Origin: an uncultured delta proteobacterium
GTDB lineage: Bacteria; Desulfobacterota; Desulfobacteria; Desulfobacterales; JAHEIW01
Reading direction: 5' to 3'
DNA length: 64,000 nt
Assembly (NCBI GenBank): GCA_963706575.1
Contig: CAVPNL010000012.1
Location: 192,001 to 256,000, forward strand
In this document: positions 12,052 to 23,043 of the stretch, one piece after another
Layout: each line of letters begins with the position of its first letter
How positions within the stretch are numbered: position 1 is the stretch's first letter
Position numbers and translations under genes: made by a program
Notes under the pieces: generated by a model
Databases searched by the model: none
The model's input: only the letters and a program-made list of their open reading frames with translations
Told to the model about the DNA's origin: nothing

Positions 12052-12366
12052 CTTTTAATTCTTTCCTGTATGCTCTTCTGATACCGTCGTCCTGATTTAA
12101 AGTCAATATTTAATGCGTTTGCAAGTATCGGTAATTACATAAGTTATTGTTTTCATTAGAACCGACTGTATAAACGATGGAATTTATGAACCTAAAATAA
12201 ATAGTTCATGTCAGTTATGTCAGTTCTCGGTGATCATAGTTGATTTAACAATCACCACTGTTAAGATTCACTTGACTTGACAACTACCAATTATGGTATC
12301 TGTACTTTTATGAGAATTGGGATATCATCTACGTATCTGTATTTTAGCGATTTTGCATGTATTCTC

Positions 12367-13909: not shown

Positions 13910-14006
13910 GGGATTCCTAATTAAACCTCTGATTACTCTCCAACATATCGGCGAAATTGACCGGCCTCCAGAAGTTGTGATATTTTCGCATATCTGTAAA
14001 ATTGAG
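13910..14006 (+). repeat. Island spacer repeat A, copy 1
   Basis: gggatt..taa..aaac..tgatt..ctccaacatatcggc...aagttgtgata...atatctg.aa aligns with 16251-16280 joined to 18396-18458. Confidence 0.7.
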
Positions 14007-16171: not shown

Positions 16172-16368
16172 GGGAAAGCAAGGCACTACATGTTATGGCT
16201 TGGCTTATTTTCTTTAGATTGCATATATCATTAAAAATCACAGCCGTTTTGGGATTGTTAAAAACTGTGATTTCTCCAACCTGTACGACATAAAATGATA
16301 ATTGACTAAACAGTCGATCGAGGTCATTATCTACCTGTTTTTTCTGCAAAAAGCGAAAGGAGGTAGTG

Positions 16369-17448
16369 ATGAACCTCGAGCATGTGTCTGCAGGAAAAAG
16401 CACATACAGCCCCACAGCGATCCAGCCCAAAGCGATTCAACTTTCAATTTTTCCCAAAATATCTCTTCGCCCCGCCTATCATGTATCTAATGAACAGATC
16501 GAGCGCACCCTGCGGCGAATATCCGCTGAAGGGTTGTGTGGCAGCGATATGGTGCGCGATTACCTTTGCCGGCAGCTACGGCACAACTGCCGGCCCAGCA
16601 CCATTCGCAGCAGCGGAACCACTATCGTGCTATTTTTAGAGTTTTTTAAGCAAAGCGGCGGTCAGCAGTTGGCGGCAGCAGGTCCAGAGCATATCAGCGC
16701 TTTTGTTGAACATGAGCAAGATCGTGGTATGGCGCCAAACTCGGTGGATGGACGGCTAAAGGGATTGTATGCGTTTTTAAATTTTTTAGTTGAGCACGAG
16801 GTTATCAGCGCGGATGTGATCAAGCGTAAGCTTCGCATCAGGGTGCCCCAGGCCCTGCCGCGGGCCATTGATCCGGAGGATATTAAGCAGCTGTTGGCGG
16901 CAATAGAAAAGCCTCGGGATCGGGCGCTGATACTAACGCTTCTTCGCACCGGCATGCGTATCGGCGAGCTTTTAAGCACCAGGGTTAAGGATATCAATCT
17001 GCGCGAGCAACTGGTTCAGATCTTTGAAGCACATAAAAATCGGGTGGGCCGGGTGGTCTATCTTAGCGCTGATGCGGTGGGCACCTTGGAAAAATGGTTA
17101 AAGACAAGAAAATATCAGAGCAAATTTATCTTTTATGGCTATGATGTTGGACCGCTTTGCTACCAAGCGGCCCGTGCGATGTTCAAACGCTATATAGACA
17201 AAACCGGTCTGGCCCACAAGGGCTACACGCTTCACTGCCTGCGTCACACATACGCCAGTGAGCTGTTAAATGCCGGTATGCCGCTGCAATGTCTGCAGGA
17301 GCTTTTGGGTCACAAAAGCATTGAGATGACGCGCCGATATGCGCGGCTAACCGACAACACGCGTCGCAAGGCTTATTACCAGGCGATGACCATCATTGAA
17401 GCAGGAGAGATCAATGGGCATTACCGACTCGATTATCAACTACCGTAG
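16369..17448 (+). CDS. Tyrosine recombinase 1 (XerD-like, N-terminal SAM-like domain)
   Basis: TGMRIGEL, K, HCLRH, LGH, TRRY catalytic set intact. GGAGG RBS. Confidence 0.93.
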   Translation: MNLEHVSAGKSTYSPTAIQPKAIQLSIFPKISLRPAYHVSNEQIERTLRRISAEGLCGSDMVRDYLCRQLRHNCRPSTIRSSGTTIVLFLEFFKQSGGQQLAAAGPEHISAFVEHEQDRGMAPNSVDGRLKGLYAFLNFLVEHEVISADVIKRKLRIRVPQALPRAIDPEDIKQLLAAIEKPRDRALILTLLRTGMRIGELLSTRVKDINLREQLVQIFEAHKNRVGRVVYLSADAVGTLEKWLKTRKYQSKFIFYGYDVGPLCYQAARAMFKRYIDKTGLAHKGYTLHCLRHTYASELLNAGMPLQCLQELLGHKSIEMTRRYARLTDNTRRKAYYQAMTIIEAGEINGHYRLDYQLP

Positions 17449-18334
17449 ATCGTTAAAAAGGCGCAACTTCTCTAAATACACCATCAGAAATTACATGAGC
17501 ACACTGAAGCAGTTTGTCATTTGGCTGGATGTGCCCATCGATAAGGTAACCCACCAAAAGCTGGTGGGCTTTATCGATGATCTGTTGGCCAAGCGCCTGA
17601 AACCCAAGACCATCAACTGCTACCTGGACAGCATCCGCGGCTTCTATGACTACCTGATCTGTGAGGAGCAACTTAAGATGCAAAATCCGGTGAAACTCGG
17701 AGATACACTGCGCATGTCCAAGCCACTGCCGCGCTTTTTGCGAGATGAGCAGGTGCGGACGCTTTTTGCACAGATCGATGATCCAAGGGATTTGGCCATC
17801 TTCAAGCTGATGCTGCGCTGCGGCCTTAGGGTGCAAGAGGTGGCCAAGTTGACTCTTGCCTCTGTGGATTTAAAACGCGCCCAGGTGTTTGTCTACCATG
17901 GCAAGGGCGCCAAAGAACGGATGGTTTATTTAAGCAAAGATGCCTATCAGGCGCTTTTGGCCTATCTGAAGGTCAGGCCTTTCTCCCGGGCCAAAAGGCT
18001 TTTTTTGGTCAACAAGGGCCGCTTTAGAGGCCAACCGCTCAACGTTCGCGGCATCCAGCACCGTATCAAATACTACTCGAAAAAGGCGGGCTTTAAGGTC
18101 AGCTGCCACCAGCTGCGCCACACCATGGCCACCCAGATGCTCAATGCCGATGCGGATTTAGTGACCATCCAGGACCTTTTGGGCCACGCCTACATCACAA
18201 CAACCGAGCGGTATTGCCGTGTGTCGAACCAGAAAGTGCGAAGGGATTACTACCGGGCAATGGATAAAGTAATCGAGCGCCACAGCCCGGTCGGAAACAA
18301 AAGACTTGACAAAGAAGAAATTTTGATTAATTAA
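17414..18334 (+). CDS. Tyrosine recombinase 2 (XerC/D-like)
   Basis: CGLRVQE, GKGAKER, HQLRH, LGH, TERY. AGGAGA RBS before ATG 17414. Overlaps recombinase 1. Confidence 0.93.
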   Translation: MGITDSIINYRRSLKRRNFSKYTIRNYMSTLKQFVIWLDVPIDKVTHQKLVGFIDDLLAKRLKPKTINCYLDSIRGFYDYLICEEQLKMQNPVKLGDTLRMSKPLPRFLRDEQVRTLFAQIDDPRDLAIFKLMLRCGLRVQEVAKLTLASVDLKRAQVFVYHGKGAKERMVYLSKDAYQALLAYLKVRPFSRAKRLFLVNKGRFRGQPLNVRGIQHRIKYYSKKAGFKVSCHQLRHTMATQMLNADADLVTIQDLLGHAYITTTERYCRVSNQKVRRDYYRAMDKVIERHSPVGNKRLDKEEILIN

Positions 18335-18459
18335 AATGGAAGCTAACTAATTAATATTAATAGAAATAACAGGGTTTATGTCGTACAGCTCCAACATATC
18401 GGCACTTTTGAACCCCTCGCAAAAGTTGTGATACTCGTTTTATATCTGCAATCATAAGG

Positions 18460-18547
18460 GCCAAGACAGTTCCGACCATTCTAATCTAATCGAACTATTT
18501 TTCCTCTACCAACCTCCGTCCTTGAAAGCTACACTTAGCTCTGATAT
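18460..18547 (+). repeat. Island spacer repeat B, copy 1
   Basis: gccaag(a/t)cagttccgaccatt.t.atctaatc.aact...aacctc.gtcc(c)ttgaaagc...tgatat, repeated at 19492-19580. Confidence 0.85.
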
Positions 18548-18591
18548 CAATTATGTATAAAGTTGACCTTTAGAAATACAGGAGCTGCGAA

Positions 18592-19479
18592 ATGCCACTT
18601 TACAAAATCCTTCCAGACGGACAAACACTTGAAATTGTTAAGAGAAAAGAATTCTCATATGAAAAAGACCTTCATATTCTTATAGACAGGAATCTCCTCA
18701 GTTTATTGGGAATAAGGTTAATTGCGAGTGAGTACCCAATTCCAAATGGAAGAATCGACACTCTTGGACTTGATGAAGATGATATTCCTGTAATAATAGA
18801 ATATAAAAAAAAGAAGGATTTAAGCGCAATCGTTCAAGGCTTATTTTACCTTGATTGGATTATGCAGAACAAAAAGCCCTTTGGGTCGATAGTTAAAGAT
18901 AAGCTAGGCAAAAGCGTGGATGTCAACTGGTCAAAGCAGCCTCGCCTTCTCATCATTGCACAAGATTTCGATGTCAAAGAATTAACGGCTATTAATCAAA
19001 TGGGTCCAAGAATTGAGTTGGTCAAATATTCATTCTACGAAGGATTATTCAATATTGACGGTGTGAATATCGTTGAGGCCAAATCACCACCCAAAAAAGA
19101 TGAGGGCGAAAAGCCTTCTGAAGATTATACGGTTGAGCAATTGGTTAAGAAAGCAACCCCAGAAATTCAATCCCTATATATGGAATTGCGAGAGAAAATA
19201 ACCGCTATTTCTGAATCTGTGTGGGAGAAAGTTCATTCATATTATTGCGATTTCCGCACTACCTCAACTTTTACCACTGTAAATGTGCAAAAGACTCAAC
19301 TTAAGATCTTTTTAAAGATGGGTGAACGCGAGGTTGATGATCCTAAAGGTCTTACTAAACCAGTCCCTTCAAGTTGGGGCTATGGTCACTTAAATACTCA
19401 GTTCCTTATTTCAAAAACTGATGAAATTGATGACGCAATGCATTTGATAATGCAGGCTTATGATTATGTTTCAGGATAA
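18592..19479 (+). CDS. NucS/EndoMS-like PD-(D/E)XK nuclease fused to a DUF5655-like domain
   Basis: EKDL...GRIDTLGLD...VIIEYK...QGLFYLDW. C-terminal DDPKG...WGYGH...LIMQAY. Confidence 0.8.
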   Translation: MPLYKILPDGQTLEIVKRKEFSYEKDLHILIDRNLLSLLGIRLIASEYPIPNGRIDTLGLDEDDIPVIIEYKKKKDLSAIVQGLFYLDWIMQNKKPFGSIVKDKLGKSVDVNWSKQPRLLIIAQDFDVKELTAINQMGPRIELVKYSFYEGLFNIDGVNIVEAKSPPKKDEGEKPSEDYTVEQLVKKATPEIQSLYMELREKITAISESVWEKVHSYYCDFRTTSTFTTVNVQKTQLKIFLKMGEREVDDPKGLTKPVPSSWGYGHLNTQFLISKTDEIDDAMHLIMQAYDYVSG

Positions 19480-19491
19480 TTTTTAATTCGC

Positions 19492-19580
19492 GCCAAGTCA
19501 GTTCCGACCATTTTGATCTAATCAAACTTTATTACCTCATCGAACCTCAGTCCCTTGAAAGCCGCACGCACCTTTGATAT
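19492..19580 (+). repeat. Island spacer repeat B, copy 2
   Basis: Direct, degenerate copy of 18460-18547, starting 13 bp after the nuclease stop codon. Confidence 0.85.
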
Positions 19581-19721
19581 AGATGCATATCAAATAGTTC
19601 CCGCATTCTGATGTTCTCTATATATTAACATTGCTTGGTAATAAAAATGCTTAGGTTTATACAGATCCTTTTAGGGGTCACTATCCCGGCGCCGGCCAAT
19701 ATTGTTCAATTCATATTTCAA

Positions 19722-19761
19722 CAAAAAAGCCGAGTCACCCACTAATCGGGCAATCTCGGCT
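19722..19761 (-). terminator. Intrinsic terminator for the minus-strand island genes
   Basis: aaaaaagccgag ... ctcggctt hairpin with a U-run on the minus strand. Confidence 0.6.
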
Positions 19762-19828
19762 TGCTGGCTACTTTGGCCAATACCATAAGGTCTGGCCGTT
19801 TTGCTGGCTTGGTAATATGTGTAATTGA

Positions 19829-20023
19829 TTACCTTAGCTGCAATTTTCTGTTTTTAGTATGTTGCAGCTCGTAAACTCTCTCCAATTGGTCTCCCTTTAG
19901 CAACAGGGGAAATAGTCCGTCGAAGTCCTCAATGTGAAATACGAAACGCTCAGAGACTGAATCGTAATAGATCTCATAGGGCTTTCTGAATTTGCTTTTT
20001 TTAAAAACTATAGGTTTTTTCAA
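19829..20023 (-). CDS. Small hypothetical protein
   Basis: 64-aa ORF with a TTG start overlapping the upstream stop by 4 nt. Confidence 0.45.
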   Translation of the reverse strand: MKKPIVFKKSKFRKPYEIYYDSVSERFVFHIEDFDGLFPLLLKGDQLERVYELQHTKNRKLQLR

Positions 20024-20889
20024 CTTGGCTCCTTGTCTAACAATTTATATAGATCCACTGATACGGGAGACTTTGACAAAAATTTTTCAAGCTTTTTATC
20101 TGTTTTCAACTTTTGTTGTTTTTCCGTGTAAGTGCGTTCAAATTCAGATTGATAAGCGTCTAGGGCATTTTCTATAAAGGAAAGGTCGTCAAGCACCTGT
20201 CTGTGTTCCTCCGAGCTAAATGTTCTCTTTGATTCGACAATATCCCTGATCGCTCCGACCCTTTTTCTTGCGAAGATGGGCGGTGTCACTATCATTTCCC
20301 GAGTTTCACGGTATTTAAGCATGTTAAACAGGAGTATTGCTAATGCTGATTTTTTATCAAACTCATCACCATCAACCTTTTCCAATTTCCTTTGCAATGT
20401 GATAACAAATCTTAGGAGTAGAAAAAAAACAGCCTCGCTGTAATGGTTTGCCTCAAACAGCATCTTTTGGTAATCATCCGATGGAATGCCAGGATCAATC
20501 TCGTAGGGATTCCAAGCGGGCAGTGTGGTTTTTGTCCGTTTAATAATTTCAGACGCAAACTCGATGGCGTGAGCATAAGAAGACTCATAAAATTCGGGGT
20601 CAGTCCTCCATTTCCGCAACAGACCGTATGAAACATCACAACTTTTTGCGATATCCTTTAGCGTCCAGTTTGTTATACCAGCCAGCATAGCAGCATAATA
20701 TTTTTTCCGTGAAAAACCGATTTTCTCGCCTTTGGAGGTGCCTGCTCTTGTCGGTTGCTCGTAATCGTGGAGATGATATAGAACATATTCACCAATGAGC
20801 GCAGAGATATTGCTCTCGGGTTTCTGGGTAAGCCGTCTGATCTCCTCCCATAAACGATCTGATTCTGTCATTTTGTTAGATTGTGCCAT
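20020..20889 (-). CDS. Phage/island-type HTH-containing protein
   Basis: WTLKDIAKSCDVSYGLLRKWRTDPEF helix-turn-helix. GGGAG RBS. Confidence 0.7.
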   Translation of the reverse strand: MAQSNKMTESDRLWEEIRRLTQKPESNISALIGEYVLYHLHDYEQPTRAGTSKGEKIGFSRKKYYAAMLAGITNWTLKDIAKSCDVSYGLLRKWRTDPEFYESSYAHAIEFASEIIKRTKTTLPAWNPYEIDPGIPSDDYQKMLFEANHYSEAVFFLLLRFVITLQRKLEKVDGDEFDKKSALAILLFNMLKYRETREMIVTPPIFARKRVGAIRDIVESKRTFSSEEHRQVLDDLSFIENALDAYQSEFERTYTEKQQKLKTDKKLEKFLSKSPVSVDLYKLLDKEPS

Positions 20890-20936
20890 TTCGCTCCCTA
20901 CTGATTGAATCCAGTGTGATAATCAAAAAACAATAT

Positions 20937-20971
20937 AAGTAACATATATAAAAAAATGTTACTTTTGTCAA
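20937..20971 (-). promoter_or_regulatory. Inverted-repeat operator overlapping a TTGACA promoter of the HTH gene
   Basis: aagtaacat (20937-20945) / atgttactt (20956-20964). tgtcaa at 20966-20971. Confidence 0.55.
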
Positions 20972-21169
20972 ATGTTTTTTTCATCAAATTGAATTTTGGG
21001 CAAAAGCTATTGGAATGATTCGATTTTTATACAATTAAGGAAGGGATATTAGAAAACAAAAACCCGCTGCCGAAACTGCGGGTCGTGAGATTCAAAATAT
21101 AATAGTATGGTAAGCAGGGATATAAAATCCAGCCATAAACTGGGCGTAAATTATTATTCGAAAAATTTA

Positions 21170-21580
21170 TTAACCGACTTCATCGGGTTTTTTTATCGCA
21201 AAATTTTTTTCGTTTTTGCTTTTTTCATCATCATTAATTAAAGTTATTAATTTATAATTCCCCTCTTCCTTTGCTGTCACTGGGGAAATAATCATATGAA
21301 ATTGAAATCTAGTATATCCCTTGATGTGTTCTGGGGGGCCACCCTTTACTTTTTTCCCAATCCGATTCCCAGAAGGATCTAAGAGTTCAGCTGAAAAAAT
21401 ATCGCCTCCTTTAATGTTTTCATAATTTATTACAAAACAGAGCTTGGGGAAGGTAAAGGGAAATTTTGGAACAAAGATATCTTTGGCATAAACGCCCATC
21501 ATCGAAATTTTATTTCCCACCTCTTCCCTTATATCATCACAGATTAGTGTGAAATTACATTTCGGTTTTTTCGCTGGCAT
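21170..21580 (-). CDS. DUF6941-like beta-rich protein, third gene of the TA operon
   Basis: LICDDIREEVGNKISMMGVY...FPKLCF...EEGNYKL pattern. Start at MPAKK overlaps the antitoxin 3' end. Confidence 0.7.
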   Translation of the reverse strand: MPAKKPKCNFTLICDDIREEVGNKISMMGVYAKDIFVPKFPFTFPKLCFVINYENIKGGDIFSAELLDPSGNRIGKKVKGGPPEHIKGYTRFQFHMIISPVTAKEEGNYKLITLINDDEKSKNEKNFAIKKPDEVG

Positions 21581-22244
21581 ACCATCCCTCTGAAGAAGCA
21601 TCTGAATTGGAGGAAAACACTTGTTCTGTATCCATCTGCGAAACCCCTGATGAAAATAAACTATCCTCCGCGTATGTCGATTGTGGGTCTCTCACACCCA
21701 AAAAAACCGTCTTAGGTCTCTGTGTGCAAGGATTAGAGATTTGCTGCAACCTGACTTTGTAATCGTCTTGATAAAACTCAGCAATAATTTGATAGAACAT
21801 CTTTGTTTCTTGAAGACGTATCTCAGATAGATTTTTCAGTATTTTTTGCGAATCTTCAATCTTTATTCCCTTATAAATCATATAGGTAGCTCTAATTAAT
21901 CGGTCATTTGTCTCGCTGTGATTTTGAAGGTCATTTTCCCATTTTGAATAAGTTGTGCTCCCTACCCCCAAAGCAGATGCAAATTTTTTTGATGGAAAAT
22001 GCATATTTTTTCTTAAAAATTTAATTTCGCTACCATTTAGCAAAGAATGTTTTTCCAAAAGAACCGACGCAATTAAATCGCTCAGATATCCCACTCGAAA
22101 AATTGAAGGGTACATTATGCCGCAATTGCACTCATAAACGGGAATATTATGGATATTTACGTTGTATAGACCAGATTCTCTATACCAATAATCCCCTATT
22201 TTCGGCTGAATTAATTTGCCACAACCGGGACATTTATTTTTCAT
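21555..22244 (-). CDS. MqsA/YgiT-type zinc-finger + HTH antitoxin with a long C-terminal extension
   Basis: CPGC...YRESGLYNV...ECNCG zinc ribbon. LNGSEIKFLRK...FASALGV...YSKWEN HTH. About 100 further residues, the last ~60 Ser/Asp-rich. Confidence 0.85.
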   Translation of the reverse strand: MKNKCPGCGKLIQPKIGDYWYRESGLYNVNIHNIPVYECNCGIMYPSIFRVGYLSDLIASVLLEKHSLLNGSEIKFLRKNMHFPSKKFASALGVGSTTYSKWENDLQNHSETNDRLIRATYMIYKGIKIEDSQKILKNLSEIRLQETKMFYQIIAEFYQDDYKVRLQQISNPCTQRPKTVFLGVRDPQSTYAEDSLFSSGVSQMDTEQVFSSNSDASSEGWYASEKTEM

Positions 22245-22253
22245 TATACAGTC

Positions 22254-22562
22254 CTATTTGTCCATGATTGTTATACAAGCCACTTCTCGATGACCAACTA
22301 TTACTGTTACTACAGTTGCCTTATCACCATCAATTGCATAACCGGTGGCCTTATATTTCCAATCATCATGCTTTTTATCATATTCTGGGGCTTCGGTAAC
22401 CATGCAATTCGAAAGCAGGTATTCTAGATCCTGCATATCGAATCCCCTTTCTTTCATTCTTTCCTGGCAATGAGATCTTGGTGTAATCCATCCCAATTTA
22501 GCAATCTCCCTGATTTTTTGCTGGGCCTTTTGTGGTGAAAGTCTATATTTATTATCGGTCAT
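22254..22562 (-). CDS. DUF4258-family (RelE-superfamily-like) putative toxin
   Basis: HCQERMKERGFDMQDLEYLL...WKYKATGYAIDG...VVTV...ITIM. Confidence 0.85.
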   Translation of the reverse strand: MTDNKYRLSPQKAQQKIREIAKLGWITPRSHCQERMKERGFDMQDLEYLLSNCMVTEAPEYDKKHDDWKYKATGYAIDGDKATVVTVIVGHREVACITIMDK

Positions 22563-22583
22563 AACAACAAAAAGTCAAGAGAA

Positions 22584-22606
22584 AAAGTTGGTTTTAAACC
22601 AACTTT
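22584..22606. promoter_or_regulatory. Palindromic operator upstream of the TA operon
   Basis: aaagttggttt-t-aaaccaacttt with perfect 11-bp arms. Confidence 0.7.
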
Positions 22607-23043
22607 ACAAAAACTCACGGGTTCATATTTCATCATGGGGATATCTATTTTAAATTTTTAAAACCGTTCTGTGCAAGAAAAAAATAAAAACCCCGACCGA
22701 AATCGAGGCTTAAAAAAATGACATAAAAATGACAATCACACAAAATACTGACAATCAATTTAAAGCCCTATTCCAAATTGGAACTTTAAAAACGGCATGA
22801 AAATATTCCATGTCAGTTAATGTCAGTTCTGATGGTTTTCAGTTTAATTCTAATCCCCCAACTTATTGTATTCCTATATAAAATAAATTTTTGGCCTCCT
22901 GATTTAAAGTCAAGCGAACATTCAACTGCTTGAGCGGTCAAAATTTTGACAACCACCGGTTGCTCCCAATTGATTTTCTCTCCCAATCATAGCGCAGCGC
23001 TTAAGCTCTCAATTATTTCGCAGGGTAGTATGCCGGTATAATA

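Follow-up and report, generated by a model that had tools for sequence, protein, structure and literature searches.

The window analysed here, a stretch of 64,000 nucleotides from an uncultured delta proteobacterium, carries a three-gene operon in which a DUF4258 toxin and an MqsA-like antitoxin with a disordered C-terminal tail are followed by a gene of the family DUF6941. Among relatives of this antitoxin, the DUF6941 gene accompanied long-tailed members and was never found next to short ones, and the DUF6941 protein likely guards the antitoxin as a chaperone or sensor of a new kind, unrelated to SecB.

Operon, operator and genomic surroundings

Three open reading frames were found on the minus strand, at 22254-22562 (102 aa), 21555-22244 (229 aa) and 21170-21601/21580. 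These frames and their family matches agree with the first-pass annotation, which had proposed an operon of a DUF4258 toxin, an MqsA-like antitoxin and an overlapping third gene. The features are as follows.

22584..22606, either strand: palindromic operator-like site with perfect 11-nt arms
22551..22578, minus strand: sigma70-like promoter match (10/12), weak alone
22254..22562, minus strand: DUF4258 toxin, a predicted BECR-fold RNase of 102 aa (Pfam PF14076, E 8.8e-9, above cut-off)
21735..22244, minus strand: folded core of the antitoxin, residues 1-170, with a CxxC/CxC zinc ribbon, an Xre-type HTH, two helices and a beta-hairpin
21555..21722, minus strand: disordered tail of the antitoxin, residues 175-229, a candidate addiction tag with the conserved aromatic F210 (pLDDT <50)
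21585..21590, minus strand: ribosome-binding site of the DUF6941 gene as read from the sequence, within the last codons of the antitoxin and the source of its terminal E-G-W-Y
21170..21580, minus strand: DUF6941 protein of 136 aa, a predicted all-beta Ig-like sandwich

The first two genes follow the type II order of the DUF4258-MqsA kind, with the DUF4258 toxin ahead of a zinc-ribbon/HTH antitoxin, and the palindromic operator-like site at the promoter is a further feature of that kind. Antitoxins of the MqsA type counteract a BECR RNase and act as repressors of the promoter from which they are transcribed. The antitoxin matched TIGR03830 (E 5.4e-14, below its cut-off) and the YgiT finger (E 3.5e-4). 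In the available part of PMC11980606, DUF4258 toxins are called uncharacterised or undescribed and are placed among the BECR RNases, a placement also made in that of 10.64898/2026.08.28.747851. For the third gene, 21580 is the most likely start, since its homologues align from that methionine and a GAGGGA box immediately precedes it; the predicted product then has 136 aa, and the overlap with the antitoxin is 26 nt. No PADLOC model matched the three window genes, and among 28 related proteins the DUF6941 proteins and the toxins were likewise without a model, generic HTH matches being the only ones obtained.

The palindrome had also been proposed as an operator, and the sequence agrees with this: its arms are perfect over 11 nt, the 5.67-Mb genome contains its core (GTTGG-N7-CCAAC) only once, and upstream of the toxin gene the outer arms are found again across the clade, around a variable centre. 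An HTH dimer of the antitoxin likely binds this site. Six sigma70-like matches were found vs 8.7 expected by chance, and the -10 hexamer of the best of them falls inside toxin codons 3-4 in the window and in related loci. No Shine-Dalgarno sequence was found before the conserved toxin ATG in the window or in related loci; a TTGAC-like box lies 10 nt 5' of this ATG in the 14 loci shown.

The GC content of positions 18340-23000 is 37%, vs 48% genome-wide. Because this region also follows two tyrosine-integrase genes and contains a PADLOC candidate, PDC-S18, the data suggest an acquired island. The integrase genes lie in tandem at 16366-18334, and 45-nt direct repeats (13938-13982 and 18389-18433) bracket both of them together with one further gene, presumably adenylate-cyclase/TPR-like. 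PDC-S18 corresponds to a NucS/DUF5655 gene (18592-19479, E 4e-74) that is flanked, in a cassette-like arrangement, by 62-nt direct repeats of 82% identity (18460-18521 and 19492-19553). A perfect 17-nt direct repeat (12090-12106 and 22897-22913, spaced by 10.8 kb) may delimit an island to which the triad belongs. Next to the triad on its downstream side, the minus strand encodes a 289-aa protein (20020-20889) with weak HTH matches only.

The antitoxin tail and the DUF6941 protein

The C-terminal antitoxin sequence quoted in the first-pass annotation is present, and its description stood in part. The antitoxin had been described as continuing ~100 aa past its HTH and ending in a low-complexity tail. 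In the AlphaFold model, confidence is high up to about residue 170, residues 111-169 are folded and only residues 175-229 (~55 residues) are predicted to be disordered; disorder over the whole ~100 aa was therefore rejected. In 49 relatives, the part past residue 170 is 49-78 aa long and about 15% identical to the query, vs 57% for the core. Of the proposed Ser/Asp composition, the hydroxylated half was borne out, since Ser and Thr make up 22.5% of the tail vs 10.6% of the core in these relatives; an Asp-rich tail was rejected, the share of acidic residues being no higher than that of the core (10.7% vs 11.2%). The terminal aromatics noted earlier did not survive the comparison as a signal. 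Trp occurs within the last 12 residues in 3/49 relatives, and the terminal Tyr column, missing in 17/49, reads Y/H/N/D because the overlapping ATG of the DUF6941 gene forces xAT codons, which were present in the 7 relatives checked. A terminal WY recognition motif was therefore rejected, these residues being the ribosome-binding site and ATG of the next gene read in another frame. Position 210 (F210 in the window) is F or Y in 38/49 relatives, and a folded beta-hairpin at antitoxin residues 150-169 is present in the clade.

In 10 close, non-independent pairs, the core had a dN/dS ratio of 0.20 and the tail one of 0.72, which is near neutral; in 6 of those pairs, the ratio for DUF6941 was 0.28. 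The tail is thus kept open and at a similar length with its sequence barely constrained, which fits the ChAD-like variability described in the available part of PMC5105189 and also fits a near-neutral spacer.

The third gene had been called DUF6941-like rather than SecB-like, and this was supported. It matched Pfam DUF6941 (PF22091) with an E value of 1e-11 and 45.7 bits vs a cut-off of 27, Pfam gave no SecB match for its product, and hhalign of DUF6941 against TA-linked SecB returned a probability of 0.2%. Its model (pLDDT 93.8, pTM 0.85) is all-beta with no helix, so that the check for a SecB fold left the call standing; SecB is an alpha/beta protein. The DUF6941 protein is not SecB, and the model predicts an Ig-like all-beta sandwich. 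SecB was also not found in the window's own genome (91.8% complete), nor is it among the fold matches listed, an absence that excludes nothing.

The best matches were RhoGDI, PDE-delta and the Wzt binding domain by Foldseek (E 2e-4 to 1e-3, TM about 0.4-0.5) and the macroglobulin domain MG2 and SoxZ by VIA (Z 8.1-9.1, rmsd 2.4-3.7 over 94-116 residues). These Ig-like sandwiches (RhoGDI/PDE-delta/UNC119, the Wzt carbohydrate-binding domain, SoxZ and MG2) have the overall fold alone in common with DUF6941, at 9-16% identity, and since the matches are tied and generic, no one family can be named as the relative and no function follows from them. The nearest structural matches were uncharacterised phage proteins (TM up to 0.75). 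Unlike the Ig-like matches, DUF6941 has a conserved inserted hairpin region at about residues 14-45; its conserved residues are C14-D15-D16, R18, E20, K24, G29, P41 and G107. A sequence search of the PDB found no DUF6941 relative (best E 0.15), and an Atlas search excluding DUF6941 returned only DUF3859 (0.77), a lead at best. The family comprises 4,162 clusters at 50% identity, and no natural antitoxin-DUF6941 fusion was found among 7,999 longer candidates, which is weak evidence.

Association of DUF6941 with extended antitoxins

The first-pass annotation had proposed asking whether the three genes co-occur elsewhere and whether tail presence goes together with DUF6941; both associations were found. 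We assembled 225 loci of antitoxin relatives (65/65, the best 80 of 151 and the best 80 of 98), of which 1 carried a deletion (L004), 16 were cut by contig ends and 3 were unparsed. Long-tailed MqsA-like antitoxins were followed by DUF6941 in 23/26 loci, by SecB in 2/26 and by another gene in 1/26, whereas DUF6941 lay next to short antitoxins in 0/179 loci; removal of near-copies left 16 of the 23 long loci with DUF6941 and 86 of the 179 short ones. Because the same toxin type lies upstream in 102/117 usable short or cut loci among L001-L155, the short loci are fair comparators.

The DUF6941-linked antitoxins form one branch (support 99) together with four rows labelled short or cut, which are probably L004 and contig-cut loci; given this single branch, the association within the MqsA clade counts as one evolutionary event. 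L004, in which a deletion has fused what is left of the antitoxin with the last part of DUF6941, was set aside. Within the clade, no locus that keeps a long tail intact was seen to have lost DUF6941. Across 18 related loci, the divergence of the tail tracked that of DUF6941 (partial r 0.73) more than that of the antitoxin core (0.45). In L085, the HTH region resembles that of L078 and the tail and DUF6941 resemble those of L001, with the switch near the core-tail border, the pattern that joint movement of tail and third gene would leave, although it was observed in one locus only.

Several individual loci deserve mention. L004:600-1500 is a decayed copy from which the tail and most of DUF6941 have been deleted together and in which the toxin gene also looks broken. 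L040:3998-5173 and L143:1513-2769 are classical DUF4258-MqsA-SecB triads; their tails end in ALAA/ALGA, which we take to resemble a ClpXP degron. The third genes after long-tailed antitoxins at L126:3185-3634, L356:1979-2242, L365:1625-2329 and L360:953-1402 match neither SecB nor DUF6941, the one in L360 being SecB-like by eye only, and further families of third partner may exist.

At least five TA classes include triads with DUF6941. Besides the class of the window, it takes the third position after HicAB, after a second MqsA-type pair and after two prophage toxin-HTH classes, and the antitoxin extensions in these classes are mostly Ser/Thr-rich: the Ser/Thr shares of extension and core in four classes are 22.5/10.6, 25.5/13.7, 22.6/11.5 and 17.5/12.3%. 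No sequence motif common to the extensions of different classes was found. In one class, the extension (~50 aa) is N-terminal to an HTH antitoxin, as judged from predicted start codons, and therefore could not be produced by read-through towards DUF6941; the toxin of this class has weak ParE-type matches. Phage MD8 carries this class as cI-higB-higA-'Ig-domain protein', of which the available part of the MD8 paper (PMC8508860) mentions the TA pair only.

A HicB search gave loci in 71/401 genomes. Among the best 30 loci, DUF6941 follows 6/12 long-tailed and 0/15 short antitoxins, 3 being atypical or cut; 5 of these 6 long loci had contributed to the search profile, and the remaining one is closely related to one of those five. 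SecB follows one other long-tailed HicB among the same 30. In 50 viral DUF6941 loci, one of two putative toxin classes lay two genes upstream in 44, the profiles of these classes having been built from the same loci and the viral sample drawn with patterns from the clade studied; the remainder comprised three MqsA-like pairs, one HTH gene, one contig edge and one solo copy. In prophages, toxin-HTH-DUF6941 cassettes often stand directly after a phage repressor-like gene, as in L377 (KX198612) and several of L241-L289. No short comparators were found for either prophage class, the alignments being too diverged and single-protein scans giving 1 and 3 loci.

The context of DUF6941 varies among bacterial samples. 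In a phylum sample centred on the L024 genome, 8/331 genomes carried DUF6941, and in 7/8 cases the preceding gene is antitoxin-like, although several assignments were made by inspection only and the toxin of L383 was not identified; the prophage toxin class occurred in 3 of the 331 genomes, with DUF6941 as the third gene in 3/3. In the phylum of the window, for which two largely overlapping genome draws were counted once, 17/401 genomes passed the DUF6941 cut-off; five of these 17 copies follow HicB, one an HTH pair, one a HicB-like fragment and one two unknown genes, and nine are not TA-linked. In Acidobacteriota, DUF6941 was present in 36/201 genomes and 0/30 inspected loci looked TA-linked, part of the upstream genes having been scanned. 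An exclusive link of DUF6941 to TA systems was therefore rejected, copies outside TA loci being numerous (9/17 in the window phylum and 30/30 of the inspected Acidobacteriota loci). One solo gene (L303:1477-3303, minus strand) lies some 300 nt downstream of groEL, and this neighbourhood hints that solo copies may serve a chaperone-related function. In a sample of 23 genomes, DUF6941 was not found in a dnaK-dnaJ context, the single match above the cut-off having other neighbours. On a quick tree built from 79 DUF6941 proteins, with weak deep support, 11 context changes over 7 labels were required, which suggests repeated partner switching.

Proposed role and comparison with known systems

By analogy with the SecB systems, we proposed that DUF6941 binds the antitoxin extension and stabilises the antitoxin, the RNase being released when a competing ligand appears, and to this reading we give an even chance of being right. 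It is favoured over the others because the anatomy parallels that of SecB-dependent toxin-antitoxin-chaperone (TAC) systems and because, where short antitoxins are comparable, DUF6941 occurs only with extended ones. The tail would render the antitoxin prone to aggregation or proteolysis, and DUF6941 would shield it, probably by adding strands of the tail to its own beta-sheets. A competing ligand, either a phage protein or an unfolded protein under stress, would draw DUF6941 away; the antitoxin would then be lost and the RNase would stop translation. That the window locus itself senses phage appears somewhat unlikely.

DUF6941 could instead bind the tail with the opposite sign, as a sensor or protease adaptor which, when triggered, hands the antitoxin over to be degraded. 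The co-occurrence and the co-inheritance of tail and DUF6941 fit this equally, and the invariant charged motif of DUF6941 could dock a host protease or chaperone rather than the variable tail; however, the known analogues are stabilisers, and the lack of any DUF6941 loss with an intact long tail in the clade fits a gene that cannot be dropped; we rate an adaptor as improbable. We regard it as just as improbable that DUF6941 is a second antitoxin or a co-repressor acting on the toxin or the antitoxin core, with the tails as near-neutral spacers kept open for translational coupling. The tail dN/dS of 0.72 and the origin of its last residues in the start region of the next gene would accord with a spacer, and the folded hairpin (150-169) could be the binding site. 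Nevertheless, toxins and cores are unrelated across the classes (HicA, DUF4258, RelE-like) and the extensions are their common feature; moreover, coupling needs no 50-70 extra codons, the tail stops before the next gene in L002 and L088, and N-terminal extensions occur. Less probable still is an independent stress or defence cargo that rides in TA operons for its regulation and makes no contact with the TA proteins, for although solo copies are common and the prophage cassette lies downstream of cI, a known cargo position by analogy with lambda rex, this leaves unexplained why 0/179 short MqsA-like and 0/15 short HicB antitoxins carry DUF6941 when long ones do.

Extending the stabiliser reading, we tentatively suggest, with rather less than even confidence, that addiction chaperones or sensors comprise a second family, DUF6941, with no structural relation to the first. 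On this view, an Ig-fold protein of proteostasis, which does housekeeping work where its gene stands alone, would have been drawn more than once into TA operons, of at least five classes; it would read N- or C-terminal Ser/Thr-rich antitoxin tags and would let prophages and islands detect phage proteins, a re-invention of the SecB TAC principle. In the literature cited, chaperone-addicted TA systems are defined by a SecB-like chaperone. If the suggestion is true, a second, unrelated fold does the same job in several TA families and chaperone addiction evolved more than once; a large unstudied family would gain its first function, and a class of swappable phage sensors would be added. Versions of the triad are present in temperate phages that have been isolated, Pseudomonas phage MD8 among them. 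In the literature searched, subscription journals and supplements lying outside the search, no publication naming DUF6941 or PF22091 was found, nor any description of the triad, including in the available parts of PMC13069673 and PMC12619734.

The closest two-gene systems are the DUF4258-MqsA (YgiT-type) modules, which have the same toxin family and antitoxin core as the window triad but whose antitoxins extend only 58-85 residues beyond the KWEN motif, with no gene for DUF6941 following. The variable, disordered antitoxin extension that these two-gene relatives lack is a TAC feature and is present here. Similar to the SecB TACs, namely M. tuberculosis HigBA1-SecB(TA), E. coli HigBAC, MqsRAC and CmdTAC, the triad has the order toxin-antitoxin-third gene in one operon, and one third-gene family is common to HigA-, MqsA- and HicB-type antitoxins; prophage location and solo copies beside TA-linked ones are further likenesses. 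According to the available part of PMC5105189, antitoxins of the same families, with highly variable extensions, occur in the SecB TACs, and a ChAD remains functional when grafted onto the N-terminus; the ligand of HigBAC is a phage tail protein, as stated in the available part of 10.1101/2024.02.24.581848. In SecB-type TACs generally, the third protein binds the extension, with conserved aromatic residues mediating recognition, toxin neutralisation depends on that protein unless the extension is deleted, and phage-triggered defence is shown for some of these systems; in the triad described here, F210 is the conserved aromatic of the extension. True SecB triads occur within the same MqsA-like family (L040 and L143), and unlike theirs the window tail does not end in ALAA/ALGA. 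The third protein also differs from that of the SecB TACs, having no sequence similarity to SecB and a predicted all-beta Ig-like sandwich, and one DUF6941 class carries its extension at the N-terminus. The triad is therefore not a TAC by definition, its third protein not being SecB, but it is TAC-like by anatomy and, judged by that likeness, likely works like one.
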